From the NCBI GenBank assembly GCA_964247135.1, contig CAXTTL010000002.1:7693-71692 (forward strand): DNA of 64,000 nt, written 5' to 3'. Below the pieces are notes generated by a model that was given only the letters and a program-made list of their open reading frames with translations, was not told where the DNA came from and searched no databases. The position numbers and the translations under genes are program-made. Shown here in pieces: positions 1 through 64,000 of this stretch (the stretch's first letter is position 1; each line of letters starts with the position of its first letter). The stretch is from an uncultured Deinococcales bacterium. Lineage in GTDB: Bacteria > Deinococcota > Deinococci > Deinococcales > JAAFIG01.

Positions 1-575
1 ATGGTGGTCAACAAGAAATACGTGATACCGAGCGCAAAAACCAAAACGATCACGGGGTAGGTCAGGGCGCTGCGAATTTTACCGCGCAATGCCAATTCTT
101 TTTCTTGAAAGATGGCAACACGGTCAAGAACCGTATCGAGCGTACCCGAGATTTCACCGGCACGTACCAAATTCAGGAACAAACGGCTGAAAACCTTCGG
201 GTATTTGGAAATGGCATCCGAGAACGGCACACCGCCTTCAACGTCGGTTCGGACGCTCTTTAAAATCTTCCTCATGCCAGCGTCTTCGACTTGCTTGCCC
301 AGAATCGCCAGCGATTGCACCAGTGGCAAACCGGCGTCGATCATGGTGGCGAGTTGTCTCGAGAACAACGAAACGGCTTTTAAGCTGGGTGTTCCGTCGC
401 CCAGCCCAGGGATTTTGATGTCGGCGTTTAAGCCCGACTTTGGTGGTTGGATCGCCACAATAAACAAGTTTTTTTCGCGCAGCACATCGCGCACTTGTTT
501 TGCATCATCGGCTTCCATTGAAGACGAAATGACTTTGCCTGCCGCATCCCGAACTTTATAGGTAAACGTCGCCAT
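1..575 (-). CDS. pilC: Type IV pilus assembly / T2SS-F family platform protein PilC, N-terminal part (3' end runs off the window)
   Basis: Absent from the ORF track because there is no stop inside the window. The reverse complement from ATG (575-573) reads MATFTYKVRDAAGKVISSSMEADDAKQVRDVLREKNLFIVAI...SLFSRQLATMIDAGLPLVQSLAIL...FSRLFLNLVRAGEISGTLDTVLDRVA...YPVIVLVFALGITYFLL, a canonical GspF/PilC signature. Confidence 0.85.
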   Translation of the reverse strand, partial: MATFTYKVRDAAGKVISSSMEADDAKQVRDVLREKNLFIVAIQPPKSGLNADIKIPGLGDGTPSLKAVSLFSRQLATMIDAGLPLVQSLAILGKQVEDAGMRKILKSVRTDVEGGVPFSDAISKYPKVFSRLFLNLVRAGEISGTLDTVLDRVAIFQEKELALRGKIRSALTYPVIVLVFALGITYFLLTT

Positions 576-623
576 ATTGGGTAGTATAAACCTTGATATG
601 GTTTTTGACAGGGAATTTTTCAC

Positions 624-1250
624 GTGAGCCAACCAGCAGACGTAGAGCTTGTTCAAGATGGGGCGCTCGAGCTTCCCGAACTCGCCTTGATGCCTTCAGG
701 CAATGTTATTCCCGCCGAGGCAAGCTTGCTCGAGACGCTTTCGGCGGCGCTGCTGGCGGCGGGGCGTCCGGTCAAGCCCAAAGAGATTGCCAGTCTTTTG
801 GGCGTCCCCGTCGAATCTTCGCACCGTTTGATTGAAATGCTGCGGCGGCGATTTCAGCAGGCGTGTCTGGGTTTTGAGATCGAAGCCGTGGCGGGCGGCT
901 ACCGCTTGATCGTCGCGCCAGCCGTGGTGGCGCTGCTCGAGCCGCTGCTGGCCCCACCACCGCTTCCGGCATTGTCGGCGGCGGCGCTCGAGACGCTGGC
1001 TATTGTCGCGTACAAGCAACCGATCACGCGCGGCGAGGTCGAATTGATGCGAGGCTCGAGTGCGGCGAGCACCTTGGATACCTTGCAAGAACGCGAGTTG
1101 GTCAAGGTCGTGGGGCGCAAAGAGGTGATCGGACGTCCGATGCTCTTTGGCACGACCGAAAAGTTTTTGCTCGAGTTTGGACTCTCATCCATTTTGGATT
1201 TGCCCGCACTCGAGGATGATGAGACGTTGGGAGGTTTCTTGCGTGGTTGA
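624..1250 (+). CDS. scpB: Segregation and condensation protein B (ScpB)
   Basis: 208 aa. Two winged-helix ScpB modules (LLETLSAALLAAGRPVKPKEIASLLG; ALETLAIVAYKQPITRGEVELMRG...STLDTLQERELVKVVGRKEVIGRPMLFGTTEKFLLEFGL). GTG start. Confidence 0.9.
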   Translation: MSQPADVELVQDGALELPELALMPSGNVIPAEASLLETLSAALLAAGRPVKPKEIASLLGVPVESSHRLIEMLRRRFQQACLGFEIEAVAGGYRLIVAPAVVALLEPLLAPPPLPALSAAALETLAIVAYKQPITRGEVELMRGSSAASTLDTLQERELVKVVGRKEVIGRPMLFGTTEKFLLEFGLSSILDLPALEDDETLGGFLRG

Positions 1251-1417
1251 AGCTCTAACCTGGTTTGATTTCGATGCGAGGATTGACCGCGCAGCCTGTT
1301 CGAGCGGGTGTTAGGATACTTTTTGTCGATTCGCAAAATGGAGAATGAATTTTTTGGAATCTTGGGATTGAACGCTCGAGATGGCTATGATTTTGACTGA
1401 AGTTTTTTGGAGGATTT

Positions 1418-6355: not shown

Positions 6356-6553
6356 ATGAGTGAACGCCAAACGGTGCTGCTGAGAGCCACTAAGCTCGGC
6401 TCGAGGTGGTTGCTCGAAGCCCACCATTTGCAAACCCACGTCGAGCACCGTTTTAAAAGTGTGGCGGCGCTCGAGACTTGGTTGCGGCAAACCCTGCCTG
6501 AAGAAGATGAAAAACCCGTCTCGGACGTAACATCTCGAGCCAATGAAGGTTAA
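6356..6553 (+). CDS. Hypothetical small protein (65 aa)
   Basis: An ORF that fills the gap between the regulator and the next gene. The composition is ordinary, but there is no SD or -10 box and no recognisable family. Confidence 0.3.
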   Translation: MSERQTVLLRATKLGSRWLLEAHHLQTHVEHRFKSVAALETWLRQTLPEEDEKPVSDVTSRANEG

Positions 6554-6575
6554 GATCAAGACACAAGGAGCAATC

Positions 6576-7862
6576 ATGAAAAAATCTGTGATCCTGTTGG
6601 GGCTGACTGTGGCGGCGGTCGCATTGGCGCAAACGCAATACAAAGTCGTGTTCGGCGGCAAAACCACCGGCATTGCGGGCGTGGTTGCCGCAGGAAAACT
6701 TTCGCTCTCGAGCAAACCCTATGCGGGTGCGCTCGGCTCGAGTGTCAGCATCGACTTTAAAGCCAAGAGCGCCAGTTTTACCCGCAACGGTAAAACCGCC
6801 AAAGTGGCTGTCAGCATTCAAAAAGACATTGCTTATGCGCCTGCGGTGGAGGTCGCCAAAGGTTTGGGTTTGAACGCCAGCGTCTCGAGCAACACGGTTA
6901 CAGTCACAAATCCGACACCCGCCGCCCCGAGCAACGCGCCGAGTGTTCAAGGCACAAGCCAGCAAAACGGTGGTGACGGCTTGATCGGACAAACCTACAC
7001 GCTTTGCAAAGGCGACAACGCCATCAATTACCAGATCACCAAGCTCGAGTACAGCGTTGGTGATTATTTGTACGATGGCGGTAACAAAAACGATGTTTTA
7101 AGTCCAGATCAAAAAGCGTTGGTGATTTATTTCACGGTGCAAAACCCACTGAAAAGCGAAAGTTATGTCAACGGCGGCAGGATTCGGTTCTCTGGTGTGG
7201 ATTCCAAAAATCAGAATGTCGCTGGCGATGGCTACTGGTACGAGCAAGGTACATTGCGTCAGGTGGACACCAGTTTGCGTCCAGCGCAAAAAATCAATGC
7301 CTTTACCCGCATTATTTTGGGCAACGACGTCAGCCTGCCAAAAATGATCGTGGACGATTGCAACAACGCGATCTGGCGTTACGATTTGCGCGACAAGGTC
7401 GCGCCGCTTCCCGCCCCGTTCGCCGATCCCAGCGTGCCCGACGGCTCGAGCGCCCTGAAAATCTTTCCCGCACAATTTGGCACGTACTACCCAGGGCGCA
7501 CGAATTTTAGGATTGACAAGCTCGAGTACAGCACCGCGCCCTGGTTTGACGGCAGCAATCCGCCCGAGGGTGGAAAATGGTTGATCGTGTACTTCACGGT
7601 GCAAAACCCGACCAAACAAACGCAAAGCCTGGGTCAGAGCGCCCTGTCATTTTTGGACCAAGACAACATTGAAAGCTCACAGTCGGGCTGGGTCTACCGC
7701 GCCTCGAGGGACACGGGCATTGGGGATATTCAACTGCCTGCCAACCAAGAAATTCAATTGCGGGCATTGGCAGAAGTACCGGCGGGCGTGGAGGTCAAAA
7801 AGATTAGACTGACCTGGGATTATACCAGGACTGCTGAGCTTGACACCCTAGCCCTCAAATAA
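6576..7862 (+). CDS. Secreted protein: stalk-like (copper-amine-oxidase-N-like) domain + two DUF4352-like beta-sandwich repeats
   Basis: The start is moved from 6543 to the ATG at 6576, which has AAGGAG 5 nt upstream and gives the signal peptide MKKSVILLGLTVAAVALAQ. Internal duplication: ALVIYFTVQNPLKSESY and WLIVYFTVQNPTKQTQS. Confidence 0.75.
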   Translation: MKKSVILLGLTVAAVALAQTQYKVVFGGKTTGIAGVVAAGKLSLSSKPYAGALGSSVSIDFKAKSASFTRNGKTAKVAVSIQKDIAYAPAVEVAKGLGLNASVSSNTVTVTNPTPAAPSNAPSVQGTSQQNGGDGLIGQTYTLCKGDNAINYQITKLEYSVGDYLYDGGNKNDVLSPDQKALVIYFTVQNPLKSESYVNGGRIRFSGVDSKNQNVAGDGYWYEQGTLRQVDTSLRPAQKINAFTRIILGNDVSLPKMIVDDCNNAIWRYDLRDKVAPLPAPFADPSVPDGSSALKIFPAQFGTYYPGRTNFRIDKLEYSTAPWFDGSNPPEGGKWLIVYFTVQNPTKQTQSLGQSALSFLDQDNIESSQSGWVYRASRDTGIGDIQLPANQEIQLRALAEVPAGVEVKKIRLTWDYTRTAELDTLALK

Positions 7863-7894: not shown

Positions 7895-10375
7895 ATGAAA
7901 CACAAAGTCCTGGCAATATTTACCGTCCTGACCCTCGCCATCGCCGCGCTCGGTGTGGCACTGGCGGGAACACTGACGCTGGTCATCAACGGCACAAGCA
8001 TCAGCATTGATGGTTTCGTTGAGCAGAACACGGCTTGGGTTTCGTTGCTGCCCTTTATGCAGGCACTCGGTGAGGGAACGCGTCCGGTCAAAATCGACCT
8101 GCCCTCGAGCACGATGGTCCTGACCAAAGGCGACGGTTCAAAACAAGTTTCTGTGCCGATTCAAACCAAGAACCGCAGCGTTTACGTCGATGCCGTCGCC
8201 GCTGCTCGAGGTTTGGGTTACAGCGTCAGTTTGGATGCCAGCACCTTAACCATCAACTCGAGCACCGCCAGTACACCCAGCAATACGCCAACCGCGCAGG
8301 TGGCAATGTATCCCAAAAACATGGACGCCGCGCTGATCGACGATGCGGTCAGGTCGCTCTACAACGCGCTCGATTCTGGCAATGCCGATGCCGCGCTCGA
8401 GGCGGTGCTGAACGGTTCGGGGATCACGGTTTTTGGTTCGCAAGAGCACCCTGCCGACACGGATTTGCTGAATGTCTACGAATTGATGCACCGTTCGTTT
8501 GCCTTGTCGCTCGAGATTTTTACCTTGCAGATGGGTTACAAGTACCGTTTTTTCACCAAGCTCGATGACCTTCTGGCAGGACTCAAAGAACGCAAGATTG
8601 CCACTTTGGATCGGGCGCGGTTGCAAAGCGGAATTGACAATGCCTTCGCGCTCGAGAAACCCAGCCGTTCGCAAGTTATAACCGCGCTGGTTGCCGCGAT
8701 GGGACGCGAACGGGTGCGGCGCGGCATCAGTTTGTCGTTCAAACGCGACCCGTTCTGGGGCGATGATGCGCTCGACCCGATTCAATTGCGTTTGCTCGAC
8801 ACGGTGTTGACCAATGGTTTTGCGCTCGGCGCACCAGGCATAAACACGCTGCTGGCAACTCGAGCCTTCACCAACCAAGTTCGGTCAACACGCCCTAAAA
8901 ATGCCGCCTTGGAATCCAGGCGAAGCTCGAGCCAATTGATTTCCAAAGCCGATATTTCAGTTCCCGAACCAATTCAAAAACTCTTCAACTGGGCAGCCGA
9001 AAAAGCCGTGGACACGATTGCCACCGAAACCTACCCTGGCGTCAAAGACACGATGGATCACGAAATTGCCGACCTGGCGGGTGTGCCACTGCCGACCCCG
9101 TTTGACAAGAACATGTACAAAGCGCTGCTCGAGGGCGACATCGGTAAAGTCAAAACCAGTTTCGGCAACCTTCGCGCCGGACTGATTAAAGAGGCGCTCA
9201 AAGAAGGCGCACAAGTGATTCTCTGCGGGTCAATGATTTTGTACGGTTATCAAGCCAGCCTCGAGTTTGAGCACAGTGAAGTTCACCACCGCACGGACGG
9301 CGACGCTGAAGGTCCGTACTCGAGCAAGATCAAACTGAAGGTCGAATTTACGGATGACTATCACAAGAATGTGTTTGACAAAAAAGTTTTTACCGTGGCG
9401 GGCATTTCGGTCACGCCGCCACCCGTCGAGAACGGCGCGTTGTTCACCAAACTCGGCTGTGACTTTCCCAAGGTTGGCGCGGCAAAAGACAAACCCGTGC
9501 AGTGGGAATTGACCTCGGAACTTATTCCGCACACCGAAACAGGGCAATTGATCGTCTTTCCAAACAGCCTCAAAACCAATGCTGCCGGCGAATCCGAAGC
9601 GCGGTTTGAAGCCATCAAAGAAAACGTCCCCAAAGCCTTTCGTCTGGGCAAATACACCGCATCCGTGAACGGCGGCATCACGGTCACGATTCAGAATTTG
9701 CTGCCCACCAACTGGTGGCGCATTCAGGCGGCGGCACAAGTTGGGCAAACCGAAGACAAAGCTGGCACCAATTTTAAACGCCTGATCGTGCATTATTTTG
9801 AATTCCCAAAACTCAAACTCGAGTTTGACTCGAACTTGCACATTGTCGGACAAAGCGAATACGGCTTGATGCACTACAATGCCGAACTCGTCTCGAGCGT
9901 GCCGCTGGCGGTCAAACCCGAAGGTGATGATTTGCAAAAGAAATTTATTGTCTACCAAGGTTCAAACAGCCTGCATTATGAGCAGTACCACCTTGATACC
10001 GCCACAGGTTGTCGCATCAACAATGTGCAAAGTGGAATGCTGGACGTGCTGGTTGGAGCGCGAAGCTTTGAATCCGATGAAGTGAGCGTCGGTCTAAACG
10101 ACCTGCTCAAACGACCATCCGAAACCGTGGCTTGCCCAGAAGGTGCTCGAGGTGGGAATATTTGGAGCGGCGGATTTTTAACGCTTCACAACGATGTTTT
10201 GGGGAAATTTCAATTGCCGAATGTGGACTCGCCCGTGCCAAATTATATTTTTCGCAGTCCCAAAGAAGCCGTTGCCACGCAAGTGCTCTGGCAAAAAACG
10301 GTGCAACGCGATTACACCCAACCCAACATTGCCATCAACGAAAACACCAGCATTAAATTGCAAGTTCAACCTTAA
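7895..10375 (+). CDS. Large secreted hypothetical protein (826 aa) with an N-terminal stalk-like domain
   Basis: GAGGAG SD. Signal peptide MKHKVLAIFTVLTLAIAALGVALA. The first ~120 aa are paralogous to the N-terminus of the preceding gene product (..VDAVAAARGLGYSVSLDASTLTINSS versus ..AVEVAKGLGLNASVSSNTVTVTN). I do not recognise the rest. Confidence 0.8.
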   Translation: MKHKVLAIFTVLTLAIAALGVALAGTLTLVINGTSISIDGFVEQNTAWVSLLPFMQALGEGTRPVKIDLPSSTMVLTKGDGSKQVSVPIQTKNRSVYVDAVAAARGLGYSVSLDASTLTINSSTASTPSNTPTAQVAMYPKNMDAALIDDAVRSLYNALDSGNADAALEAVLNGSGITVFGSQEHPADTDLLNVYELMHRSFALSLEIFTLQMGYKYRFFTKLDDLLAGLKERKIATLDRARLQSGIDNAFALEKPSRSQVITALVAAMGRERVRRGISLSFKRDPFWGDDALDPIQLRLLDTVLTNGFALGAPGINTLLATRAFTNQVRSTRPKNAALESRRSSSQLISKADISVPEPIQKLFNWAAEKAVDTIATETYPGVKDTMDHEIADLAGVPLPTPFDKNMYKALLEGDIGKVKTSFGNLRAGLIKEALKEGAQVILCGSMILYGYQASLEFEHSEVHHRTDGDAEGPYSSKIKLKVEFTDDYHKNVFDKKVFTVAGISVTPPPVENGALFTKLGCDFPKVGAAKDKPVQWELTSELIPHTETGQLIVFPNSLKTNAAGESEARFEAIKENVPKAFRLGKYTASVNGGITVTIQNLLPTNWWRIQAAAQVGQTEDKAGTNFKRLIVHYFEFPKLKLEFDSNLHIVGQSEYGLMHYNAELVSSVPLAVKPEGDDLQKKFIVYQGSNSLHYEQYHLDTATGCRINNVQSGMLDVLVGARSFESDEVSVGLNDLLKRPSETVACPEGARGGNIWSGGFLTLHNDVLGKFQLPNVDSPVPNYIFRSPKEAVATQVLWQKTVQRDYTQPNIAINENTSIKLQVQP

Positions 10376-53765: not shown

Positions 53766-53885
53766 GGTTTCTCGAGGGGTTCTGGGTTGGACAAGTTCTC
53801 GAGCGCCAAAGAACCCCTGAGCACCACTCACAGGGGTTCTGAAATTTGAATTCTCGAGTCTTATAGCTAAAAATCGTTGTTCTCT

Positions 53886-53910: not shown

Positions 53911-53914
53911 GAAG

Positions 53915-55477
53915 TTATCGCTTTACCGTTGGAACGTACTTGGTTTGCCGCACTCGAGGTTTGTAATTAAACGGCACGGAAAATGGATTGACCCCAGCCG
54001 CCAAGTTACCAATGTTTGCTCGAGGATCATTCGGGTTGACGCCGTAAATTGCGCCCCAAGGGGTGTACACGCTGAAAATACTGTCGCGGCGAATGCTGCC
54101 GTTGTTCATTTTGACCACGCGGTCAATCCGCACGTTCATGCCATTTTCGGCGTGATCGATGCGGCGCATCTGCCCGAGCGGCACACGGTCATCGGCTTGA
54201 ATGCGGCTCGGTCCTGGCGGCAAAACTCGGGTCACATACGACCTCGAGATGCTGGCTTTACGGTCTGGCTTGGGTCCGAAGAAATCCATTTGCAAACGCT
54301 GTGAACGCAAGTACCAGGTGACTTGCAGGTACAGTGCCGCACCCGTGTCGTTTCTGAAACGCAGGTTTTTGTACGGCGAGAACACGGTGGCTTCAAAACC
54401 TGGTGGGTCGTAATAATGCACGTGATACGAGTGGTAGTTGCGTTCGGTGATCGGCAGTCCAGAAAGATATGCCGCACGGAAGAGTGTGGTTGAAACCTGG
54501 CAGATGCCGCCGCCGATGTCCTTGGCGAGCGTGCCGTTGGCAATGATGAAGCCTTTGACAAAACCTTTGGCTTCGGAGACTTGCACGGTCTTGTTGAAAT
54601 TAAACTCGCCACCCGCCGGAATGATGATGCCGTCAAGCTGTTTTGATCCTGCCACAATGTTTTGCACGCGGAACGGCGGCGAACCCCCAAAGCTCGAGTC
54701 GCCACCGCCAAAGTGATAACGAATGCCGGCTTTGTACCAGTTGATCACACCAAAAGCTGGAGGGCTGCGTTTAACAATAATGTTGGCATTGGCTTTGTTG
54801 TACTTGATTGCCTCGAGCACAAAAGCATTTGAAACTTGACGGTCTGCAAGCCAGGCGCTTTGTTGGCTGGCAATCCAGTTGCCCTTATTCAGGTTCCAAC
54901 TGGCGTTGAGGCTGGGGCGCGTCAAACTGCGGTAAATGCCGTTCAAAACGTCTTGCAAGCCACTCGAGATTGCACCAATGCTTCTCGAGCGCGTCACCGA
55001 ACGTTGCGGCAGTGTGAAGGTCAGGGTAATCGGTTGGTCGATCAGGTTGCCCGCCTGAATGCGTTGTTCGGTGGTTTGCAGTGTCAAAATCAGTGGTTTA
55101 GCCAGGGTTGGCTTGACGGCTGGCGCGGTATTGGCGGGTTTGGTCGGTTGGGTGCTTGGTTTGACTGGTGCTGGTTTGACTGGTGCTGGTTTGACTGGTG
55201 CTGGTTTGACGGGGACTGGTTTGACGGGGACTGGTTTGACGGGCACAGGGGTTGGCGTCGGAACGGGTGTCGGTGTTGGCGCAGGTTCAGGCGTCAAATT
55301 GGGCAGGGGTTGACTGGGATCAACTGGCGGCATTGGGTCTGTGACGGGTGTCACAGGCTGAGTTGGGTCACTCGGCTGGGTTGGCGCGGGAGCTGGCGGT
55401 GATTGGGTCGGATCATTCTGCTGTGCCAAAGCCACAGCCAAAACAAAAACCAAGAACAGGGGCAAAAATCGCTTCAC
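53915..55477 (-). CDS. VanW family protein with signal peptide and Pro-rich repeat linker
   Basis: 520 aa. GTG start. Signal peptide MKRFLPLFLVFVLAVALA. (PVKPx)n linker. VanW core GGGICQVSTTLFRAAYLSGLPITERNYHSYHVHYY. Confidence 0.85.
   Translation of the reverse strand: MKRFLPLFLVFVLAVALAQQNDPTQSPPAPAPTQPSDPTQPVTPVTDPMPPVDPSQPLPNLTPEPAPTPTPVPTPTPVPVKPVPVKPVPVKPAPVKPAPVKPAPVKPSTQPTKPANTAPAVKPTLAKPLILTLQTTEQRIQAGNLIDQPITLTFTLPQRSVTRSRSIGAISSGLQDVLNGIYRSLTRPSLNASWNLNKGNWIASQQSAWLADRQVSNAFVLEAIKYNKANANIIVKRSPPAFGVINWYKAGIRYHFGGGDSSFGGSPPFRVQNIVAGSKQLDGIIIPAGGEFNFNKTVQVSEAKGFVKGFIIANGTLAKDIGGGICQVSTTLFRAAYLSGLPITERNYHSYHVHYYDPPGFEATVFSPYKNLRFRNDTGAALYLQVTWYLRSQRLQMDFFGPKPDRKASISRSYVTRVLPPGPSRIQADDRVPLGQMRRIDHAENGMNVRIDRVVKMNNGSIRRDSIFSVYTPWGAIYGVNPNDPRANIGNLAAGVNPFSVPFNYKPRVRQTKYVPTVKR
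55155..55245 (-). repeat. 15-bp x6 in-frame tandem repeat encoding (PVKPV/PVKPA)n
   Basis: CTGGTTTGACTGGTG x3, then CTGGTTTGACGGGGA x2, plus a sixth, more degenerate unit (CTGGTTTGACGGGCA). Confidence 0.85.
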
Positions 55478-55483
55478 GTTATT

Positions 55484-55489
55484 AGTTTA
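55484..55489 (-). promoter_or_regulatory. Putative -10 box (TAAACT) placed for a leaderless VanW-family mRNA
   Basis: The minus strand reads CAGTAAACT-AATAAC-GTG (start at 55477), a 6-nt spacer. Confidence 0.4.
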
Positions 55490-55557
55490 CTGGAGATTTC
55501 AGTTTTTTTCAGTAACTTTGAACCAAAGCGTCAAACACAACCTCAACTCGAGCGGCA

Positions 55558-56556
55558 TCAAACCAGGGCAAAGGGGGCTGCGAGTCCAGATTGCGCCACA
55601 TTTCTTGCCTCGAGCGGCAACCATTGCAGTGCCAATGCCGCTGTGTAGGCTCGAATCGCGTGCTGGCGTTCACCCATCAAATCCCGCACTTGCCCGAGCC
55701 TCGAGAGCACAAACCCTGGCAAATAGGCTGGGCGATCAAATTGACCCATCGCCACCGCCTCGAGCAAATCCCTGGCGCTTTCCAGATCGCCCACCGCCAG
55801 GTACACGCCGCTGGCGGCAAACCGCGCCTCGAGCGCCATCCGTCCGAGCGCCGAATCTGGAGCGCCGTCAAGCTCGAGCAAGGAATGCACTAAAATATCC
55901 AGATCGTCGTTTTCGTGCAGGTTGTACGCCCGATCCACCACGGCGCGGAATCTCGAGGCTTCGCCTGGTTTAAAACCGTCCAGGTTTACGGTCTCGAATC
56001 CCATCTCGAGCAAGTCTGGCAGGTCGTCGAGCGGTGTCAACACGATCTCATCTTGTTGTGCCTCGAGTTTGGCTGCCAATTCTTTCAGCCTGCGTTTGCG
56101 GTGCGCCGTGCCAGGTCCTTCCTCGAGGATTGTCGCACTTTTTCTGTGAAAAGTTTTTACGCTTTCCAGCACGGGCAATTCTGGGACAAGTCCATGAATC
56201 GAAAACGCATCGAGCGGTTTCTCGAGCATGTCTTTTAAATCCAATTCGGCGCGGCGCAATTCTCGCAATCGTTCCAAACCTTGCGGGTACATTTTTAAGA
56301 ACCCGAGCATCTTGTCCTGCTCGAGGTCGCTCCAGGTCCAATCTCTGGCGACGGCTTCTATGGGCATTCGTTCATCGTCGAGCGCAAACAACACGGGGTG
56401 CTCGAGATCGCGCCATGTTCCAGATTGCCAAACTTGCGGCGTGATGCTGGGCACAATCACCTTTTTTGCGCCGACTTGCCGCAAAATCTCGAGGACGGTT
56501 TGGGCGTTGTAGGTGGGGTAACGGGCGTGCAATGCGCCCAGGTCGGCAATCAACAC
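55558..56556 (-). CDS. Conserved-looking hypothetical protein (332 aa) with C-terminal TPR-like helices
   Basis: A clean ORF with normal composition. MLIADLGALHARYPTYNAQTVLEILRQVGAKKVIVP.. at the N-terminus. No motif I can assign. Confidence 0.65.
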   Translation of the reverse strand: MLIADLGALHARYPTYNAQTVLEILRQVGAKKVIVPSITPQVWQSGTWRDLEHPVLFALDDERMPIEAVARDWTWSDLEQDKMLGFLKMYPQGLERLRELRRAELDLKDMLEKPLDAFSIHGLVPELPVLESVKTFHRKSATILEEGPGTAHRKRRLKELAAKLEAQQDEIVLTPLDDLPDLLEMGFETVNLDGFKPGEASRFRAVVDRAYNLHENDDLDILVHSLLELDGAPDSALGRMALEARFAASGVYLAVGDLESARDLLEAVAMGQFDRPAYLPGFVLSRLGQVRDLMGERQHAIRAYTAALALQWLPLEARNVAQSGLAAPFALV

Positions 56557-56629
56557 AGGGCACTTAGTATATCCAATCTCGGGTAGAATCTTGTCTCTCG
56601 AGGGACGCTCGGGGTTTTAGAGGTGATGA

Positions 56630-57226
56630 ATGATTTTGCCGATTCGTTTGTATGGTGATCCTGTTTTAAGAACCAAAGCCAGAACCGTGACCAATTTTAG
56701 TGGTATGCCCGCCTTGCGCGAAGACATGTTTGAAACCATGTACAACGCCAAAGGCGTGGGTTTGGCGGGACCGCAGGTGGGTTTGGGCAGTCGCGTGTTT
56801 ACCTGGGTCGATTACGCCGACGAAGAACCAGAAACCGATACCGAACCGCGATCAAAAGTGTTGAACGAGTATTTTATGGTGAACCCGACCCTCGAGTTTC
56901 TGGACAAAACGCTGGTCGAGGGACTCGAGGGTTGCTTGTCGATTCCCGAAATTTACGAGGACGGCGTGCCCCGCAAACGGGCGCTCAGGGTCAACTATCA
57001 AAACGAACACGGGATTCATCAGTCGCTCGAGGTTGAGGATTACAACGCCCGAATCGTTCAGCACGAGTTTGACCATTTGGAAGCCAAATTGTTTTTGGAT
57101 TATTTGCCCTCTGAGGTCGTGGCAACCCACCGCGCCGATTTGGTGCGGATGCAGCGCGAAGCCAAAGAATTTTTGAAAAACTTACGCGAACAAGAGAATG
57201 CCGCCAAAAAACCGAGGCGCACGTGA
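56630..57226 (+). CDS. def: Peptide deformylase
   Basis: GVGLAGPQVG, EGCLSIP and QHEFDHL motifs. GAGGTGAT SD. Confidence 0.95.
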   Translation: MILPIRLYGDPVLRTKARTVTNFSGMPALREDMFETMYNAKGVGLAGPQVGLGSRVFTWVDYADEEPETDTEPRSKVLNEYFMVNPTLEFLDKTLVEGLEGCLSIPEIYEDGVPRKRALRVNYQNEHGIHQSLEVEDYNARIVQHEFDHLEAKLFLDYLPSEVVATHRADLVRMQREAKEFLKNLREQENAAKKPRRT

Positions 57227-58155
57227 AACCCCGCGTGGCATTTTTCGGTTCGCCCGAGTTCGCGCTGCCCGTGCTGGCGGCGATCCTCGAGCATTTTGAG
57301 GTGGTCTTGGTCGTGACCCAACCCGATAAACCCTCTGGGCGCGGCATGAAGTTAACCCCGCCCGCCGTGGCAGCCAGAGCGACTGAGCTGGGTTTAACAC
57401 TCTCTCAACCCGCCAAATTAAAAAACAACCTCGAGTTTGCCCAAACCTTGCGCGACTCTGGCGCGGAGGTCGCCGTGACTTGCGCTTACGGCAAAATCCT
57501 GCCCGCCAGCCTGCTCGAGATTCCCAAGTACGGCTTTTTGAACGTCCACACGTCATTGCTGCCCAAATACCGTGGCGCTGCGCCGATTCAGTGGGCGGTC
57601 ATCAATGGTGAAACCGAAACCGGCGTGACCGTGATGCAAACCGACCCTGGCATGGACACCGGCGCAATCTTGCTGCAAGAAAGCCTTGCCATTTCGCCCA
57701 CCGAAACCGTGCTCGAACTCGCACCAAGACTCTCGAGCTTGGGCGCGACCATGATCGTGAATGCCTTGGGGCATCTGGATTCGCTGACGCCCATCCCTCA
57801 AAATAACAGCCTTGCCACGCACGCCAGAATGCTCGAGAAAGAGGACGCCCGCATCGATTGGACGCTGGACGCCAAAACCATTTTTGACCGCTACCGTGGG
57901 CTGGCAGGCTGGCCAGGATCGTACTTTGTCTTTCAAGAAAAACGCGTCAAAGTCCTGGAAATGCAACTTGGGCAACACCCAGGTCAAATGGGGCGGGTGC
58001 TCGGGTTTGGGGATGGTGTGATTGTTGCCGCCAAAACAGCTTCGCTCGAGCTTTTAACGGTGCAGCCCGAGGGCAAACCCAAAATGAAGGCGCTCGATTG
58101 GGCGAGGGGTTATCAGTTCAAACCAGGAACGCAACTCGAGATAAACGCGTCCTGA
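57223..58155 (+). CDS. fmt: Methionyl-tRNA formyltransferase
   Basis: GTG start overlapping the def stop (GTGA). VAFFGSPEFALPVL, NVHTSLLPKYRGAAPIQWAVING. Confidence 0.95.
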   Translation: MKPRVAFFGSPEFALPVLAAILEHFEVVLVVTQPDKPSGRGMKLTPPAVAARATELGLTLSQPAKLKNNLEFAQTLRDSGAEVAVTCAYGKILPASLLEIPKYGFLNVHTSLLPKYRGAAPIQWAVINGETETGVTVMQTDPGMDTGAILLQESLAISPTETVLELAPRLSSLGATMIVNALGHLDSLTPIPQNNSLATHARMLEKEDARIDWTLDAKTIFDRYRGLAGWPGSYFVFQEKRVKVLEMQLGQHPGQMGRVLGFGDGVIVAAKTASLELLTVQPEGKPKMKALDWARGYQFKPGTQLEINAS

Positions 58156-58219
58156 ACCGAAATGATTGCCAGTCTGAGCATCAGAATGTCTAACCCGCAC
58201 CGATAAATTGGCGTTTGCT

Positions 58220-58228
58220 TGTTAGAAT
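58220..58228 (+). promoter_or_regulatory. Putative extended -10 box (TGTTAGAAT) placed for a leaderless mRNA
   Basis: TGnTAGAAT is followed by a 7-nt spacer (ATGCACA) and the ATG at 58236. Confidence 0.45.
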
Positions 58229-58235
58229 ATGCACA

Positions 58236-61200
58236 ATGAGCAGTAAAATCTCGACTGACCCCAAAATCAGAGCCGCCAAAGGTTCTGTGCTCAGTCGTAC
58301 CAAAGAAAATCCTGAACATTATGCCAGGCAACTCGAGGGCTTGCATCAAATTGGACTCGAGATTCTGGAACGCGCACAACCGGACCAGATCATTGAACGG
58401 GCGCTCGAGTTGATTGTGTCCTTGGTCGATTCTGACGGTGGGGCGTTTTGGATGCGTAAATCGGACCAGAATGAAGCTTGGAACGAATTCGTTTTTGCGA
58501 CGGGTAAAACCTATTTAAAGCCCGGAACACGTTTTGGAATCGGTCAGGGCGTTGTCGGTGAGGTCTTTGAAACTGGCGAAGCCATTTTAATCGATGACTT
58601 TTTGGCGCCACAATACGAGGGATATCCGTTTCGACCCGTTCGGTCGCTGATGTTTGTGCCACTAAAACGTGAACATGTTGTGACTGGCGTGTTCTTGATT
58701 GCGAATTCGGATAAAATTGCTGCATTCGATCCACAAGATTTGCAATTGTTATTGCGTTTTGCCACGCTGGTATCAATTGCCCTTGAAAATGCCAGGTTAC
58801 TCGAACAAGCCAAGGCATCAACCACAACGGCGCTATCAAAAGCCAAGCAACTCGAGGCATTGCATTCGTTATCGCTCGAAATTGCGTCTGAAAACGATCC
58901 AATTTTGGTGATTGATCGCGCCCTGAAACTCTCAATCGCCTTGGTTGGAGCCGACGATGGCGGCTATTGGCGTTTTCAAAATCCTGAACGACAAGAACCT
59001 TATGTTGAAGCCATTCTTGCCAGCCAAAGGCTCAAGCACTTTGTTGGAACCAAGATCGATTACCAGAAACCAAGCTTGACAGGGCTTGTCTTAAAAACAG
59101 GTCGAGCGGTGCTGATCGAAGATTACCAGCATTCAGAGTACCGTAATCCTATTTTTGACAACAATTGTCAGTCATTGATTGCGGTTCCTTTATGGCACAA
59201 AGATAAAATTGATGGTATTTTCACATTGATCAACAGCGAAAAAATCAATCTTTTTAACGCCCAACATGTCGAAATTCTCGAGCGAATGGCAGCCTTGTGC
59301 TCGGTCGCGCTCGAGAACGCCAGGGTTTACGAAAACCTCCAGAAAACCCAACAGGCAGCCCAGCAACAAAACATACTGCTCGAAGCCCTTCACAAGGCAA
59401 ACCTCGAGTTGAGCATGTCGCTCGAGCCAAACACCCTGCTCGATTCGGTGCTTGACCGTGCCATGTTGTTGTTGCAAGCCGACGTTGGACGGGTGCATCT
59501 GGTCAAACCAAACACGAGCATTTTAAGGCTCGAGGCGGCAAAAGGTTTGGGTTTAAACGTCAACCTGATCCCTTTTGGTCATGGACTGGCAGGGCAAATT
59601 GCCGAGCGCAATCAAGGTTTGATTGTTACAGATTACGAAACTTGGGAGCACAGCCTTCCAGGTGCGGGCAGCGAGTGGCTGAGCGCCATCGGTGTGCCAC
59701 TCAGGCGTGCCGAACAGGTGATCGGTACGCTGGTCATTGCCGATACCTTGGTGACAAACCGTTTTACCATCACCGACCTTGAAGTGCTCGAACGCTTTGC
59801 CGCCCTGACCGTGGTTGCCCTCGAGAATGCGCGTTTGTTTGACGCCGCCAACACCGCGCAGTTCGAAGAGCAACTGGCACGCCAGGAGGCATACCGCCGT
59901 GCCCAACAACTCGAGGCGGTTTATCAGACCAGTTTGGAACTGACCGGACACCTCGAGCCTGATGCCGTTCTGAACGTGCTGGTCGAACGGGTGGCGACCT
60001 TGTTTTTGGCTGATACCGGCGCGGTTTATTTTCGGGTTCCAGAAACGGACAATATTGAACTGAGAGCTAATTTTGGCACCAGTCCAACGCCTCGAGGCAC
60101 AATCCATAACGGCTTGTCGGGCAGTGTCGTGCGTTTGGGCGTCCCTCAGGCGGTCGGCGATTACCGCATTTGGGAAGGACGCGATTTTAAGATCGACACG
60201 CCGCTTTTGTGGCGTTCAGCCATGAGTGCGCCGATCACCCGAGGCACGCAGGTGATCGGCGCGTTGAGCATCGCGGACACGCGATTCCCCGACCGATTTT
60301 CGGACAAGGAACTCGAAGTGCTCGAACGTTTCGCGGCGTTTGCCAGCGTGACCCTCGAGAATGCCAGGCTGCATGAAATCGAGCGTCTGAATTTAAAAGA
60401 GGAACGCCTGCGAAGCCAGATTGCCCTGCGCCTTTCGCCGCTGCGTTCGATTCCCGAACTGTGCGATGCCGTGATCGAAGAGCTTTACAACACGCTTGGT
60501 TACGGGCGCATTTCGTTATTTTTACTCAAAGATCAAAGTTTACATTTGCAAGCCAAACGCGGTTTTGAAACCGCGATTCAAAGCTTTTCGCTTCATCAAG
60601 GCATCATCGGTCGTGTGGTACGAACCCGCGAACCGCAAATGATTTTAAGTCCTCTGCTCGACCCAGATTATTACGGCGATGATCCAGACCCCAGCGCGTT
60701 TATTTGTCTGCCGATTCACAGCGGAAACCGTGACTTGGGCGCGCTCAATTTTGGACTGAAAAAGGGACAAACGCCGCTGCCAACAGACCTCGAGTTGCTC
60801 AAAAGCCTGCTGCCCACCATCAGTGCCGCCCTCGAGAATGCGGTGTTGCACAGTGAGCTTGAAGCCCGAGCCAGCGAACTCGAGATGTTGCGTGCCAAAG
60901 CCGAACAAGCCGCCAGTCACGACCTGCTGACGGGTTTAGCCAACCGTCGCGCCTTGGAACGCGAACTGGCTGCGGCGCGAATCGATGGATCAATTTTTAC
61001 CCTGGCAGCCCTCGATTTGACGGGTTTCAAAAACGTCAACGATCAACTCGGTCACGATGCTGGCGACGATGCCTTAAAACGCATTGCCAGCGTCTTGAAG
61101 TCCACCCTCGAGTCATTTCAAGCCAAGTTGGGTATGAAGGGCGCGTTTCGCGTCGGCGGTGACGAATTTTTCATGTTGATCCCTGAGCCTTTGCCTGCCG

Positions 61201-61448
61201 CGCTCGAGATTTGTCGTAAGGTTTTAAAAGAAATCACCTCGCTCGAGTTTCCCAAAAACCTGCGGGTTTCGACCAACATCGGACTTGCCGAATACCCCAC
61301 CGAAGCCCAAAACATTGACGCCCTGTTTACCCTGGCGGACACCCGCATGTACGCCGCCAAACGCGTCGGGAAACCATTTCTGGAAGGTGGCGAGCTGGCA
61401 CAGTCCCCAAAACCCAAACGCCGTCAAACAGACCGTAAATCGCGTTAA
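58236..61448 (+). CDS. Diguanylate cyclase: five tandem GAF domains + GGDEF
   Basis: Five GAF units, each ending in the motif (A/T)LENA(R/V)(L/V). C-terminal LTGLANRRA...RVGGDEFFML. The start at 58236 is preferred over the TTG at 58215. Confidence 0.88.
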   Translation: MSSKISTDPKIRAAKGSVLSRTKENPEHYARQLEGLHQIGLEILERAQPDQIIERALELIVSLVDSDGGAFWMRKSDQNEAWNEFVFATGKTYLKPGTRFGIGQGVVGEVFETGEAILIDDFLAPQYEGYPFRPVRSLMFVPLKREHVVTGVFLIANSDKIAAFDPQDLQLLLRFATLVSIALENARLLEQAKASTTTALSKAKQLEALHSLSLEIASENDPILVIDRALKLSIALVGADDGGYWRFQNPERQEPYVEAILASQRLKHFVGTKIDYQKPSLTGLVLKTGRAVLIEDYQHSEYRNPIFDNNCQSLIAVPLWHKDKIDGIFTLINSEKINLFNAQHVEILERMAALCSVALENARVYENLQKTQQAAQQQNILLEALHKANLELSMSLEPNTLLDSVLDRAMLLLQADVGRVHLVKPNTSILRLEAAKGLGLNVNLIPFGHGLAGQIAERNQGLIVTDYETWEHSLPGAGSEWLSAIGVPLRRAEQVIGTLVIADTLVTNRFTITDLEVLERFAALTVVALENARLFDAANTAQFEEQLARQEAYRRAQQLEAVYQTSLELTGHLEPDAVLNVLVERVATLFLADTGAVYFRVPETDNIELRANFGTSPTPRGTIHNGLSGSVVRLGVPQAVGDYRIWEGRDFKIDTPLLWRSAMSAPITRGTQVIGALSIADTRFPDRFSDKELEVLERFAAFASVTLENARLHEIERLNLKEERLRSQIALRLSPLRSIPELCDAVIEELYNTLGYGRISLFLLKDQSLHLQAKRGFETAIQSFSLHQGIIGRVVRTREPQMILSPLLDPDYYGDDPDPSAFICLPIHSGNRDLGALNFGLKKGQTPLPTDLELLKSLLPTISAALENAVLHSELEARASELEMLRAKAEQAASHDLLTGLANRRALERELAAARIDGSIFTLAALDLTGFKNVNDQLGHDAGDDALKRIASVLKSTLESFQAKLGMKGAFRVGGDEFFMLIPEPLPAALEICRKVLKEITSLEFPKNLRVSTNIGLAEYPTEAQNIDALFTLADTRMYAAKRVGKPFLEGGELAQSPKPKRRQTDRKSR

Positions 61449-61456
61449 ACTGATTC

Positions 61457-62632
61457 ATGAACCCTCAAACCCTTGCCGCTCGAGCCGGAATTGACACCAA
61501 ACTCGGCGTGGCAAAGCCGCTCAACCTGGCAATTCATCAAAGCACCGTCTACAGCTATGACAACCTCGAGCAACTCGAGACGGTCTTGTCTGGTCAGGAA
61601 ACAGGTTATTTTTACTACCGCAACGGACACCCCAATGCCATCGCCCTCGAGCAGGTTTTGGCGCAGCTCGAGACTGGTGAAGCCTGTGCGGTGGCGTCCT
61701 CGGGCATGTCTGCCATCAGTGGCGCGTTCCTGGCAATCTTAAAGGCGGGCGATCACGTTGTTGCCGACCAAAATGCTTACGGCGGCACGTTTGCGCTCTT
61801 GACCGACGACCTGCCGCGTTTGGGGATTACGGCAACGTTCGTGGACATGCAAGATTTAAGTGCCGTCGAAAAGGCGCTGCAAGCCAACACCAAAATCTTG
61901 CACCTCGAGACACTCTCAAACCCCACCATGCGCGTGACCGACATTCCAGCGCTGGTCACCATCGCGCAAAGCCAAGGGATCAAAGTTTGCGTGGACAGCA
62001 CCTTCAGCACGCCCGCGCTCATTCGTCCGCTCGAGTTTGGGGCTGATTTGGTATTTCACAGCCTCGCCAAGTATTTGGACGGTCACAGTAGCGTGATGGG
62101 CGGCGCGGTGATTGGTTCCAAAGAACTGATTGATGCCACCCGAGTACGCCTGATTCACCTCGGCGGCACGATGGCGGCGTTTGACGCCTGGAACGCCCTG
62201 AACGGCATCAAAACCCTGAGCTTGCGCATGAAAGCCCACAGTCAGAACGCGCTCGAGGTGGCACGATTTTTAAACCGGCACGAAAAAGTGGCTCGTGTTG
62301 ATTTCCCAGGACTCGAGCAACACCCGCAGTTTGAACTGGCGAAACGCTTGTACCCGAACGGCTTGGGCGGAATGCTGAGTTTTGAACTCCACGGTGGTTA
62401 CGCCGCCGCCAGCCGGTTCGTCAAAACCATCAGCCCCCGCATTCCACTCGCCACCAGCCTTGCCGATGTCTCGAGCACCCTGTCTTACCCTTACGGCACA
62501 AGCCACCGCGCCTTAACCCCCGAGGCTCGAGCCAGAATCAACGTGACTGACGGCTTGTTGCGCCTGTCGGTGGGCATTGAAGCCATAGAAGACATCTTAA
62601 GCGACCTCGAGTTTGGATTGAACGGGGTTTAG
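61457..62632 (+). CDS. Cys/Met-metabolism PLP-dependent enzyme (cystathionine gamma-synthase / methionine gamma-lyase family)
   Basis: 391 aa. PLP-lysine motif FHSLAKYLDGHSSVMGG. YYYRNGHPN, DSTFSTP and the C-terminal LLRLSVGIE. Confidence 0.85.
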   Translation: MNPQTLAARAGIDTKLGVAKPLNLAIHQSTVYSYDNLEQLETVLSGQETGYFYYRNGHPNAIALEQVLAQLETGEACAVASSGMSAISGAFLAILKAGDHVVADQNAYGGTFALLTDDLPRLGITATFVDMQDLSAVEKALQANTKILHLETLSNPTMRVTDIPALVTIAQSQGIKVCVDSTFSTPALIRPLEFGADLVFHSLAKYLDGHSSVMGGAVIGSKELIDATRVRLIHLGGTMAAFDAWNALNGIKTLSLRMKAHSQNALEVARFLNRHEKVARVDFPGLEQHPQFELAKRLYPNGLGGMLSFELHGGYAAASRFVKTISPRIPLATSLADVSSTLSYPYGTSHRALTPEARARINVTDGLLRLSVGIEAIEDILSDLEFGLNGV

Positions 62633-62757
62633 GACCTGAACCCGCCGCCGGAAAAACCCTCGTTTCGACGAAACCCTCGTTTGGCACGCGGGGGTTTGCA
62701 TTAAGTCGAGCTTAATACCCCAAGTCCTAAACTGCCTTCATCACAGGAGGCACGACC

Positions 62758-63402
62758 ATGAACTTAAAAAGCCTGACCGAAAACAAAACCCTCGTTCGCA
62801 ACCTCTTTATCGCTGGGCTGGCAGTTCTGGGATTGGCGCAATACGCCGTCCAGCAGAACCAGCAAGTCTCGAGCCGCCAGAATTCCAAACCCCAGACTTG
62901 CTGCGCCAACGCCAACTGGGCTGGAAGGAATCAAATGCAGCCAACCCAGGACTACGGAATGCAGAACAACCAACAAGATGACGGAATGAACAACAATCAG
63001 CAGGATTTTGAAACGCAGAACAACCAATTCGTCAACCCTGACACCTCGAGCGCAGCCTCGATGCCGATGGGCAATACAGACTCGAGCTTTGGCATGAACA
63101 ACCAAGACTCGAGCGGCGAAATCGCGCAACCCTACAACCAACTGAACGACCCCGATTACATCAAAAGCCGCGAAAACATCCAACAACAACAATGCGACTT
63201 GCTGGGCGACACCAGCACCTTCGTTGACTCGAGCAGCGGTCAGCAATACCAAGTCGATCAGAGCGCCAGCAACGCCTGGGCGGACAACAGCGGCAATGTG
63301 GTCAGCTCGGACAGCTCGGCGAGCAATCCTGGATCAAGTTACACCGAACTGCAACCCTTACAGACCGACACGGGCACCAGTACCGACTCGAGCGGTCAGT
63401 AA
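62758..63402 (+). CDS. Secreted/membrane-anchored low-complexity Q/N/S/D-rich protein
   Basis: GGAGG SD. N-terminal hydrophobic helix LFIAGLAVLGLAQYAV. The remainder is about 60% Q, N, S, D, T and G (MQNNQQDDGMNNNQQDFETQNNQF...). Confidence 0.55.
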   Translation: MNLKSLTENKTLVRNLFIAGLAVLGLAQYAVQQNQQVSSRQNSKPQTCCANANWAGRNQMQPTQDYGMQNNQQDDGMNNNQQDFETQNNQFVNPDTSSAASMPMGNTDSSFGMNNQDSSGEIAQPYNQLNDPDYIKSRENIQQQQCDLLGDTSTFVDSSSGQQYQVDQSASNAWADNSGNVVSSDSSASNPGSSYTELQPLQTDTGTSTDSSGQ

Positions 63403-63597
63403 ACTCGAGCTTTCCTTCCCTACACAAAAAACAACAATTACACGGTCTACCCTCATCCCCGACCCTGCCCGTCAAGGTGCGTTTTAGGGTCAAGAAGCGC
63501 CGGATGAGGTGGCAAACGCGGCTGCCCAGACAAAAGCATGTGTTTGAAGACTTGAATGATGAAGTCAAAGTCAATGATAGATATGCACCCTTGGGTT

Positions 63598-64000
63598 TCA
63601 TGGGGCGAGCCGCATTTTCACCCATGCATCAGCCTCGAGTTCATAGCGAATGCGGTCGTGCAATCTGGCTTTGCGACCCTGCCAAAATTCAAACGCATCG
63701 GGCAACAGTCTAAACCCACCCCAATGCGCTGGGCGCGGGACAACCTCAGGAAACTCGAGCCTTAATTTCGCCACGTTTTGCTCGAGTTGTTCGCGGGTGA
63801 CGGTTTGACTTTGCGGGCTGGCGGCGCTGGCGAGTTGGGATTCGTAAGGGCGGCTGGCAAAATATGCGTCCGATTCTGGATCAGGAACTTTCTGCACACT
63901 TCCTTCAACCCGCACTTGACGCTCGAGCGCAGCCCACCAAAAATTCAGGCAGGCAAAGCCGGTGGTTTGCAACTCCTGCCCTTTGCGCGAGTCGTAATTG
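63598..64000 (-). CDS. pdxH: Pyridoxamine 5'-phosphate oxidase, C-terminal part (5' end beyond the window)
   Basis: ..NYDSRKGQELQ..LNFWWAALERQVRVEG...YFASRPYESQL.A..S.QS...HWGGFRL.PD.FEFWQGR..RLHDR..Y......W...RLAP is colinear with E. coli PdxH. The frame stays open to position 64000. Confidence 0.9.
   Translation of the reverse strand, partial: NYDSRKGQELQTTGFACLNFWWAALERQVRVEGSVQKVPDPESDAYFASRPYESQLASAASPQSQTVTREQLEQNVAKLRLEFPEVVPRPAHWGGFRLLPDAFEFWQGRKARLHDRIRYELEADAWVKMRLAP

Follow-up and report, generated by a model that had tools for sequence, protein, structure and literature searches.

CTCGAG as a Highly Iterated Palindrome in an Uncultured Clade of the Deinococcales

Introduction

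A stretch of 64,000 nucleotides from an uncultured Deinococcales bacterium (GenBank assembly GCA_964247135.1, contig CAXTTL010000002.1, positions 7,693 to 71,692), with a GC content of 53.7% and called the window in the following, is filled with copies of the palindrome CTCGAG. This raises the question what kind of repeat this hexamer is and what force maintains it. A first-pass annotation, made from the letters of the window, had likened it to HIP1 (GCGATCGC), the highly iterated palindrome (HIP) of cyanobacteria, and had not been aware of CTCGAG being described in such a role. No earlier report of CTCGAG in a HIP role, or of any HIP in Deinococcota, was found in full-text literature searches. 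The function and origin of HIP1 have been open for about 30 years, and every HIP known until now is cyanobacterial. By those criteria for a HIP in the broad sense which could be tested (a strong excess, the word itself as the unit, occurrence in all frames and in noncoding DNA, spread by substitution without insertions or deletions (indels), and conservation of the sites and of the codons within them), CTCGAG is a genuine HIP of an uncultured Deinococcales clade and, as far as found, the first HIP1-like iterated palindrome outside cyanobacteria. The descriptive statements on CTCGAG are regarded as practically certain; the mechanism proposed below is held with less confidence.

Abundance and Repeat Unit

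Exactly 478 copies of CTCGAG are dispersed over positions 1 to 64000, the first at 358 and the last at 63922, which corresponds to 7.5/kb or one per 134 bp, with a mean spacing of 133 bp. The hand count of the first-pass annotation (about 478, roughly one per 134 bp) was therefore exact, and its expectation of 16–19 copies with an excess of about 25-fold agrees with the 17.8 copies and the 27-fold excess calculated from base composition. Simulated Markov models of order 1, 2, and 3 expect 12, 29, and 146 copies, respectively, and an order 2 model trained on motif-masked sequence expects 6.6, an observed to expected ratio (O/E) of 73. With expectations of 17.8, 29, or 6.6 for the 478 copies, the excess is of the size which characterizes HIP1 (O/E of at least 16 by an order 2 Markov model). 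A maximal-order (order 4) model, which had been suggested as a check, expects 384 copies. This figure is uninformative because CTCGAG supplies about 90% of its own subwords: 89-90% of all CTCGA and TCGAG words fall within CTCGAG itself, so the model mostly predicts the hexamer from itself. As a refutation test it would mislead and was dropped.

CTCGAG is the top hexamer of the window, and the next 13 in rank all overlap it. The flanks are weak, with G at position −1 in 39% and C at position +1 in 41% of the sites, and composition beyond ±1 nucleotide is near background; GCTCGAGC accounts for 62 of the 478 sites. No 12-mer occurs more than four times in the window, and when CTCGAG is masked no other word stands out (maximum z of about 7). 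For these reasons the bare hexamer is the repeat unit and not part of a longer element, as had been proposed together with the mild G..C preference. The TCGA core as the true target was rejected, since TCGA outside CTCGAG occurs at expectation (261 copies against 270). The one-mismatch relatives, described earlier as conspicuous, are indeed raised, but just 1.3- to 1.8-fold (3.1-fold for CCCGAG/CTCGGG), and several transversion variants at inner positions sit below expectation.

Coding Frames and Protein Sequences

CTCGAG has a density of 7.4/kb in open reading frames (ORFs), which contain 94% of the sites, and of 8.0/kb outside ORFs. Each ORF of at least 100 amino acids carries it, at 2–13/kb, in line with the earlier statement that copies lie in essentially every gene, on both strands, in all frames, and in intergenic DNA. 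The counts by frame in 38 confident ORFs are 281 (CTC GAG, i.e., Leu-Glu), 43, and 88. Shuffling of synonymous codons within each gene gives an expectation of 47, 2.7, and 8.2 by frame, in total 58 ± 7 compared to 412 observed. All three frames are 6- to 16-fold above this shuffle, 16-fold in frame 1 and 11-fold in frame 2; enrichment is not confined to one frame, a point which the first-pass annotation had singled out for checking. When the order of the codons was shuffled, in a separate ORF set, 24 copies were expected and 424 observed.

The excess is also visible in the proteins. Leu-Glu is the most over-represented dipeptide (366 compared to 136 expected, O/E 2.7), and the count of the reverse dipeptide Glu-Leu, 139, is near the expectation of 136 for Leu-Glu. 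CTCGAG encodes 77% of the Leu-Glu pairs, CTC makes up 25% of the Leu codons, and half of the CTC codons and half of the GAG codons lie within CTCGAG. Ser-Ser, from TCG AGx, is raised as well. For reference, the O/E of Leu-Glu in plasmids of cultured Deinococcota is 0.9–1.5. Causality runs from DNA to protein: the pressure for CTCGAG has altered the proteins of the clade and overrides amino acid constraints. A DNA word of a few letters can govern how proteins evolve: Leu-Glu is at 2.7 times its expectation, and conserved Leu-Asp was turned into Leu-Glu. Phylogenetic work, homology searches, and readings of amino acid composition have to reckon with this distortion.

Conservation and Turnover among Close Relatives

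Conservation and turnover of the sites were followed in four contigs from metagenome-assembled genomes (MAGs) named 'Deinococcales bacterium' (L001–L004), which were located via PriA (93-94% amino acid identity). The priA gene of the window (51486–53894, minus strand), the marker for the comparative analysis, carries 26 copies of CTCGAG and encodes 24 Leu-Glu (O/E 2.8). The measurements are based on the syntenic stretch 44591–64000, where the four contigs share 82-86% nucleotide identity with the window (44.6–64 kb) at conserved gene order. Their CTCGAG density is 5.9–7.2/kb.

Between the window and these contigs 69-79% of the CTCGAG hexamers are retained as compared to 36-45% of any hexamer. 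Identity at third codon positions is 87% inside CTCGAG and 69% outside, CTC is retained in 88.5% inside versus 60.8% outside, and GAG in 91% versus 67%. Per tip branch 17.3% of the CTCGAG copies are lost as compared to 40% of neutral hexamers; per base, copies are lost about 2.6-fold more slowly than neutral sequence, synonymous positions included. Gain is biased as well. From 121 one-mismatch neighbours six changed to CTCGAG and four to the two alternative bases together, so a change of a neighbour to CTCGAG is about two to three times as frequent as one to other bases. The one-mismatch neighbours themselves are not conserved.

Turnover is real: a comparison of three genomes (the window, L001, and L002) gave 55 sites common to all, 37 common to two, and 25 limited to one. 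Fifteen gains were inspected, and all align without gaps to hexamers other than the motif, with conserved flanks and no indels. CTCGAG copies thus arise by ordinary base substitution and not by insertion, as the alignment of orthologues proposed by the first-pass annotation was meant to reveal. In the conservation of sites and inner codons and in this mode of origin the likeness to HIP1 which it had drawn is borne out (PMC5861425). Some gains change the protein, from Ile-Ser, Leu-Leu, Gln-Glu, or Thr-Glu to Leu-Glu. Two lineage-specific gains lie on the minus strand: at 55609–55614 the window has CTCGAG (Leu-Glu) where ATCAGT (Ile-Ser) stands between the same flanks in three relatives, and at 56221–56226 it has CTCGAG (Leu-Glu) where three relatives have CTCAGT (Leu-Ser). 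A stepwise series is found at 56851–56856 (plus strand), from ATCAAA in the window and L001 to CTCAAG in L002 and CTCGAG in L004.

At 52554, 55609, and 56221 CTCGAG (Leu-Glu) stands opposite CTCAGT or ATCAGT (Leu/Ile-Ser), with three changes in one codon and identical flanks. CTCAGT as a second motif behind these recurrent Ser/Glu exchanges was rejected; it is not over-represented. Gains of three to four nucleotides with conserved flanks had also suggested a replacement of whole hexamers as blocks. Among hexamer windows with at least three changes CTCGAG is the top derived word (6 of 644). No evidence for a one-step templated event was obtained, because this share of 0.9% matches the genomic frequency of 0.75% and losses are equally common.

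Phylogenetic Distribution

The extent of the trait was traced by a PriA search, calculation of the Leu-Glu O/E of each homologue, and a neighbour-joining tree without bootstrap. Leu-Glu O/E values of 1.9–3.6 are found in a monophyletic uncultured Deinococcales clade of 28 sequences (PriA identity 52-92%). Two basal sister sequences, P0148 (PriA identity 53%) and P0149 (46%), have values of 0.3 and 1.1, and Deinococcus species (about 38-49%) 0.2–0.9. A value of 2.85 recurs in P0151 (43%), which groups with Deinobacterium chartae (47%, O/E 1.4). The trait is the mark of one monophyletic uncultured Deinococcales clade plus a second lineage including D. chartae. Genomes which carry it include the MAGs JANXTZ01, JAYVRX01, JANMUC01, and JANLWR01 as well as ENA ERZ26165054 (contig_24), JGI 3300035014, and ERZ27245765.

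Counts on the DNA level in the surroundings of these genes confirm the pattern. In the uncultured clade the density is 4.6–7.5/kb, with 4.6/kb in the member L129 (GC 62.6%) and 6.5/kb in the member L130 (GC 63.8%). The P0151 lineage (L132, GC 60%) has 9.4/kb. In cultured D. chartae (L133, GCA_014202645.1, JACHHG010000005.1, 263828–286083, GC 68.8%) CTCGAG is the top hexamer with 96 copies in 22 kb (4.3/kb). The P0148 lineage (L131, GCA_965191025.1, CBCZNU010000036.1, GC 49.6%), which has the same VanW-PriA order as the window, has no copy in 15.5 kb, and the P0149 lineage (L134, ERZ28573577, scaffold_2577, GC 69.5%) has three in 22 kb (0.13/kb). As these two are closest to the clade from outside and nearly free of CTCGAG, the trait switches on and off between sister lineages; the same density in all relatives, an outcome which the first-pass annotation had considered, is not observed.

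Codon-aware O/E values give the same picture. They are 7.0 by synonymous shuffle and 17.7 by codon-order shuffle in the window, about 5.5 and 11–16 in the other trait lineages, 3.0 and 6.6 in D. chartae, about 2 and 2.1–2.8 in Oceanithermus and Allomeiothermus plasmids, and 0.2–0.5 and 0.2–0.6 in T. thermophilus, D. radiodurans (both plasmids), and the P0149 lineage. Values of 0.2–0.6 in relatives without the trait imply that CTCGAG is avoided there, as palindromes usually are.

Nine Leu-Glu positions of PriA are fixed in at least 20 of the 28 clade members, and at each of them most outgroups lack Leu-Glu and carry LD (17/17), LT, LA/LS/LR, or WA/WE instead. A further 18 Leu-Glu positions are singletons. 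Fixed positions next to singletons show that the pressure for CTCGAG is of old date, acts continuously, and is so strong that conserved residues are displaced. For contigs from the clade, the Leu-Glu/CTCGAG signature offers a sharp marker in binning and in host assignment.

The clade of the window and the P0151 lineage prefer G..C flanks, and C..G (CCTCGAGG) is preferred in D. chartae, Oceanithermus, and Thermus; in D. chartae CCTCGAGG accounts for 38 of the 96 sites. D. chartae is a possible experimental model. In plasmid pOCEPR01 of Oceanithermus profundus (L127, positions 1–50000) CTCGAG is the second commonest hexamer (2.7/kb, mostly CCTCGAGG). It is just about 2-fold above the codon-aware expectation; this cultured species of the Thermaceae has the trait in a weak form or in one driven by codons. 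Some viral contigs from IMG/VR (L018, L104, L111, and L067) have CTCGAG as the top hexamer, at 3.3–6.8/kb with codon-order O/E of 4–6. Genes of phage type (for a RecE-like exonuclease, a portal, and head morphogenesis) lie on these CTCGAG-rich contigs, and a tblastx comparison gave no informative matches which would link them to the clade.

Avoidance of Other Palindromes

Other palindromes are purged from the window. GGCC occurs three times compared to 338 expected and CCGG 74 times compared to 316 expected. Of the palindromic hexamers, 18 are absent altogether although as many as 34 copies would be expected, among them CGATCG (34 expected), CGGCCG (29), TCGCGA (28), CCGCGG (27), and CAGCTG (26). 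In sum the palindromic hexamers other than CTCGAG reach 443 copies compared to 1115 expected, and avoidance hits more than 20 palindromes in addition to GGCC. This purging shows a strong pressure of the restriction type, and CTCGAG is the only word to escape it; the target of an active restriction-modification system would be under-represented, and CTCGAG is 25- to 70-fold over-represented. GGCC depletion is common to L001–L004 and L130 and absent from L129, L132, and L133. Such a patchy occurrence marks it as a separate, lineage-variable trait, as would result from changing sets of restriction systems.

Spacing of the Copies

The copies are spaced more evenly than random, with a coefficient of variation (CV) of the gaps of 0.80, a value reached in none of 1000 simulations. 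Gaps below 20 bp number 17 compared to 63 expected, with a minimum of 9, and the largest gap is 605 bp compared to about 900 expected. The variance-to-mean ratio of 0.65 equals the square of the CV, so the evenness needs no more than an exclusion over a short range of about 25 bp. This exclusion is present in L132 and absent in L130. A functional long-range spacing rule was therefore rejected.

A cluster of five intergenic copies lies at 10383–10501, downstream of ORF 7895–10375, with copies at 10383, 10409, 10448, 10458, and 10496, the five which the first-pass annotation had noticed within 10383–10505. Two of them form a terminator-like hairpin (CTCGAGgttgCTCGAG, 10448–10463) followed by a T-run (10448–10473, plus strand), and the occurrence of copies in terminator stems, also noticed there, is confirmed by this example. 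A few intergenic copies sit in short inverted repeats.

Possible Mechanisms

The comparisons described above demonstrate a force which acts on the DNA level, independently of reading frame and symmetrically on both strands, and which lowers the loss and raises the gain of CTCGAG specifically. Whole lineages either have the trait or lack it, as a unit. A lineage-specific, trans-acting system which recognizes CTCGAG could account for this. To judge from the HIPs of cyanobacteria, the recognizing component may well be an orphan, i.e., restriction-less, CTCGAG methyltransferase which is coupled to a bias in repair, in gene conversion, or in uptake and integration, a reading to which moderate confidence is given. 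The putative methyltransferase would exempt CTCGAG from the purging which hits other palindromes, and the coupled process would bias fixation toward the methylatable site. The latter might lie in a bias of mismatch repair or of gene conversion between copies of the genome, or in a preferential uptake and integration of DNA from kin with methylated sites. Deinococcota share polyploidy, a high recombination activity, and natural transformability with the cyanobacteria which carry HIP1. Multiple genome copies and intense recombination in this phylum would amplify any such bias. An orphan methyltransferase is favoured because a methyltransferase with the corresponding specificity is present in each HIP-bearing cyanobacterial genome (Elhai 2015), because orphan CTCGAG methyltransferases of the N6-methyladenine (m6A) and N4-methylcytosine (m4C) types exist in giant viruses (PMC7253447), and because HIP1, as related in a paper citing the original work, raises transformation in a way that depends on methylation.

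Several points weigh against an orphan methyltransferase with coupled repair. None of the one-mismatch neighbours is depleted, as a simple very-short-patch repair ratchet would predict, and their ranking (CCCGAG > TTCGAG > CTTGAG) misfits simple decay or deamination of 5-methylcytosine (m5C). The five genomes compared form a near-star tree, so net gain and net loss are not polarised, and site conservation does not tell selection apart from a bias in repair or conversion. The window and about 190 kb of DNA from the clade were examined, and neither yielded a methyltransferase, a nuclease, or a defence gene. With M.TaqI, which recognizes TCGA and comes from the same phylum, as query (rebuilt sequence identical to PDB 1AQJ) 5.8 billion proteins were searched, and no clade homologue was among the 120 best matches; these are TaqI orthologues of Thermus, Anaerolineae, and Armatimonadota, none with the Leu-Glu signature of the clade. 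Scans by tblastn and for catalytic motifs in all compared loci were negative for clade DNA, as were PADLOC and NCBIfam searches on the unannotated ORFs of the window.

A more far-reaching version of the methyltransferase reading is put forward tentatively. The CTCGAG array might be the footprint of an unrecognised, gene-encoded, and transferable 'genome-writing' drive which was acquired at least twice in Deinococcota, independently of HIP1. One candidate would combine a CTCGAG methyltransferase with a mismatch- or methyl-directed nuclease and act via gene conversion among genome copies. The drive would install one site per approximately 130 bp, replace conserved amino acids, and coexist with extreme purging of other palindromes. 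If this were true, HIPs would be a general, convergent outcome in polyploid, transformable bacteria and not a peculiarity of cyanobacteria.

Rather unlikely is a signal for uptake or kin recognition, where the competence or recombination machinery prefers fragments with CTCGAG and the motif spreads without benefit on the gene level. This explanation partly overlaps with that of an orphan methyltransferase if recognition depends on methylation. It would fit the genome-wide, frame-tolerant excess which reshapes proteins; uptake signal sequences (USS) reportedly reshape proteins likewise, as Findlay and Redfield are said to have found in 2009. Deinococcus and Thermus are naturally competent, which suits it too. 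Further support comes from the lineage-specific presence or absence with flank 'dialects' (G..C for the clade of the window, C..G for D. chartae and Oceanithermus), from a spacing more even than random, and from the recent proposal of HIP1 as an uptake sequence (bioRxiv 10.64898/2026.06.24.733823). However, known uptake sequences are asymmetric, 9–12 nucleotides long, and present at about 1/kb, and a palindrome of six nucleotides at 7.5/kb with no extended consensus is far outside this range. The even spacing, moreover, is fully explained by the exclusion of about 25 bp and is not on the scale of fragments. Uptake by Deinococcus and Thermus is not known to be sequence-specific.

An array of binding sites is judged improbable. 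A clade-specific dimeric DNA-binding protein, nucleoid-associated or engaged in chromosome pairing or repair, would need CTCGAG every 100–150 bp, and ordinary purifying selection would keep the sites. Their conservation above background, including synonymous positions, is in favour of this, as are the lack of deserts, a short-range exclusion which fits a protein footprint, the maintenance of density over deep divergence, and the case made for selection and a nucleoid role of HIP1 (Xu et al. 2018, PMC5861425). On the other hand, at a PriA identity of 54-63% only 21-42% of the Leu-Glu positions are shared as compared to 33-44% for average dipeptides; as Leu-Glu is shared no more than average dipeptides, individual sites are replaceable. 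The short-range exclusion is missing in L130, some phage-like contigs have the same excess, which a role in chromosome architecture does not predict, and no candidate protein is known.

Next to no credence is left for a by-product of Leu-Glu frequency and the preferred codons CTC and GAG: frame 0 (Leu-Glu) does hold 68% of the coding sites, and the modest CTCGAG excess in high-GC Thermaceae is largely codon-driven, but this explanation is refuted by the shuffles, by the excess in frames 1 and 2, by the equal density in noncoding DNA, by the limited share of CTC among Leu codons, half of it inside CTCGAG, by the LD, LT, or LA of outgroups at the fixed positions of the clade, which mark the Leu-Glu excess as derived, and by the 0.13/kb of a sister lineage with the same GC content (69.5%) as D. 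chartae, which has 4.3/kb. Equally negligible and likewise refuted are remnants of a dispersed mobile or repetitive element (a repetitive extragenic palindrome (REP), a miniature inverted-repeat transposable element (MITE), or similar), for which a few intergenic copies in inverted repeats could speak; a longer element, a mostly intergenic location, and presence as indels would be expected, and there is no conservation beyond ±1 nucleotide, 94% of the sites are inside ORFs, and relatives have other hexamers at the aligned sites without indels.

Other Features of the Window

The window is ordinary chromosome, with genes including ScpB, AroE, a class II aminoacyl-tRNA synthetase, FtsH, MeaB, PriA, Def, Fmt, and kinases. 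No tRNA and no Rfam family were found across the 64 kb. A protein of 1622 amino acids with DUF5724, DUF4132, and DUF7737 is encoded at 33610–39467, preceded by three small ORFs without a family match. Large ORFs without a Pfam, NCBIfam, or PADLOC match lie at 6543–7862, 7895–10375, 10672–11964, and 15572–18043. A Ser/Thr kinase adjoins a PP2C phosphatase (47623–50462), a second kinase of 1135 amino acids is located within 30260–33667, and aldose-1-epimerase paralogues occur in tandem at 18157–19999. A partial T2SS-F/PilC-like gene is the sole competence-related gene of the window.

Comparison with Known Systems

The same recognition word is shared by XhoI/PaeR7I-type restriction-modification systems and by orphan CTCGAG methyltransferases. 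Restriction targets are normally avoided, as is CTCGAG with an O/E of 0.2–0.6 in relatives without the trait, whereas it is hyper-abundant in the window clade. For Dcm/Vsr of E. coli (CCWGG) Bhagwat and McClelland reportedly described in 1992 that a methyltransferase together with a mismatch nuclease biases repair toward the methylatable site and that oligonucleotide frequencies are shifted. This very-short-patch repair is the model behind Elhai's ratchet. Its effect is less than 2-fold with depleted neighbours, in contrast to a 25- to 70-fold excess with no depleted neighbour for CTCGAG.

The USS of Pasteurellaceae and the DNA uptake sequences (DUS) of Neisseriaceae are short genome-wide words which accumulate by drive, lie in genes, co-evolve with the proteome, form 'dialects', and sometimes are paired in terminators. 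CTCGAG resembles them in its genome-wide over-representation, its location within genes, its lineage 'dialects', and a pair in a terminator-like site. Unlike CTCGAG, USS and DUS are asymmetric, have 9–12 nucleotides and about 1/kb, and have a known receptor.

The alternate HIPs of cyanobacteria are GGCGCC (Calothrix PCC 7103), rCCGGy, GCsGC, GGGATCCC, TCGATCGA, and CAGGCCTG (Elhai 2015). As they show, palindromes without relation to each other, a hexamer among them, can take the role of a HIP in individual lineages; each comes with a methyltransferase of the same specificity, and relatives avoid the word. CTCGAG is absent from this list. Unlike CTCGAG, all of them are cyanobacterial, with an O/E of about 12–20 and 0.3–2.5/kb, and are confined to one or two genomes and not spread over a deep clade.

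In many details CTCGAG resembles HIP1 itself. Both are short G+C-rich palindromes which are themselves the unit, are strongly over-represented (16- to 317-fold for HIP1) in all frames and in noncoding DNA, and spread by substitution without indels. In both, sites and inner codons are more conserved than controls (for HIP1, the same comparison of codons inside and outside the motif was used by Xu et al. 2018, PMC5861425), whether the word is present or lost depends on the lineage, and the host genomes purge other palindromes. In the strict sense, HIP1 is GCGATCGC or a GATC-core variant in a cyanobacterium, and CTCGAG is not HIP1: it has no GATC core, six nucleotides instead of eight, and a host from another phylum, the Deinococcales, in whose window CGATCG occurs 0 times compared to 34 expected. 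Variants of HIP1 (HIP1*) are conserved, in contrast to one-mismatch variants of CTCGAG. The cognate methyltransferases of HIP1 are DmtA and DmtC, the counterpart for CTCGAG being putative. HIP1 is periodic at 10–90 kb; for CTCGAG, known from a 64-kb window, short-range exclusion alone was detected. HIP1 reaches 0.2–2.73/kb (Xu et al. 2018, PMC5861425), and CTCGAG, at 4.3–9.4/kb, is 3- to 10-fold denser and causes a large, measurable distortion of dipeptide usage. CTCGAG is thus an independent HIP, with an unrelated word, in another phylum, and with contrasts of presence and absence between sisters. A cultured representative, D. chartae, together with sisters free of the trait, makes the HIP problem directly testable.

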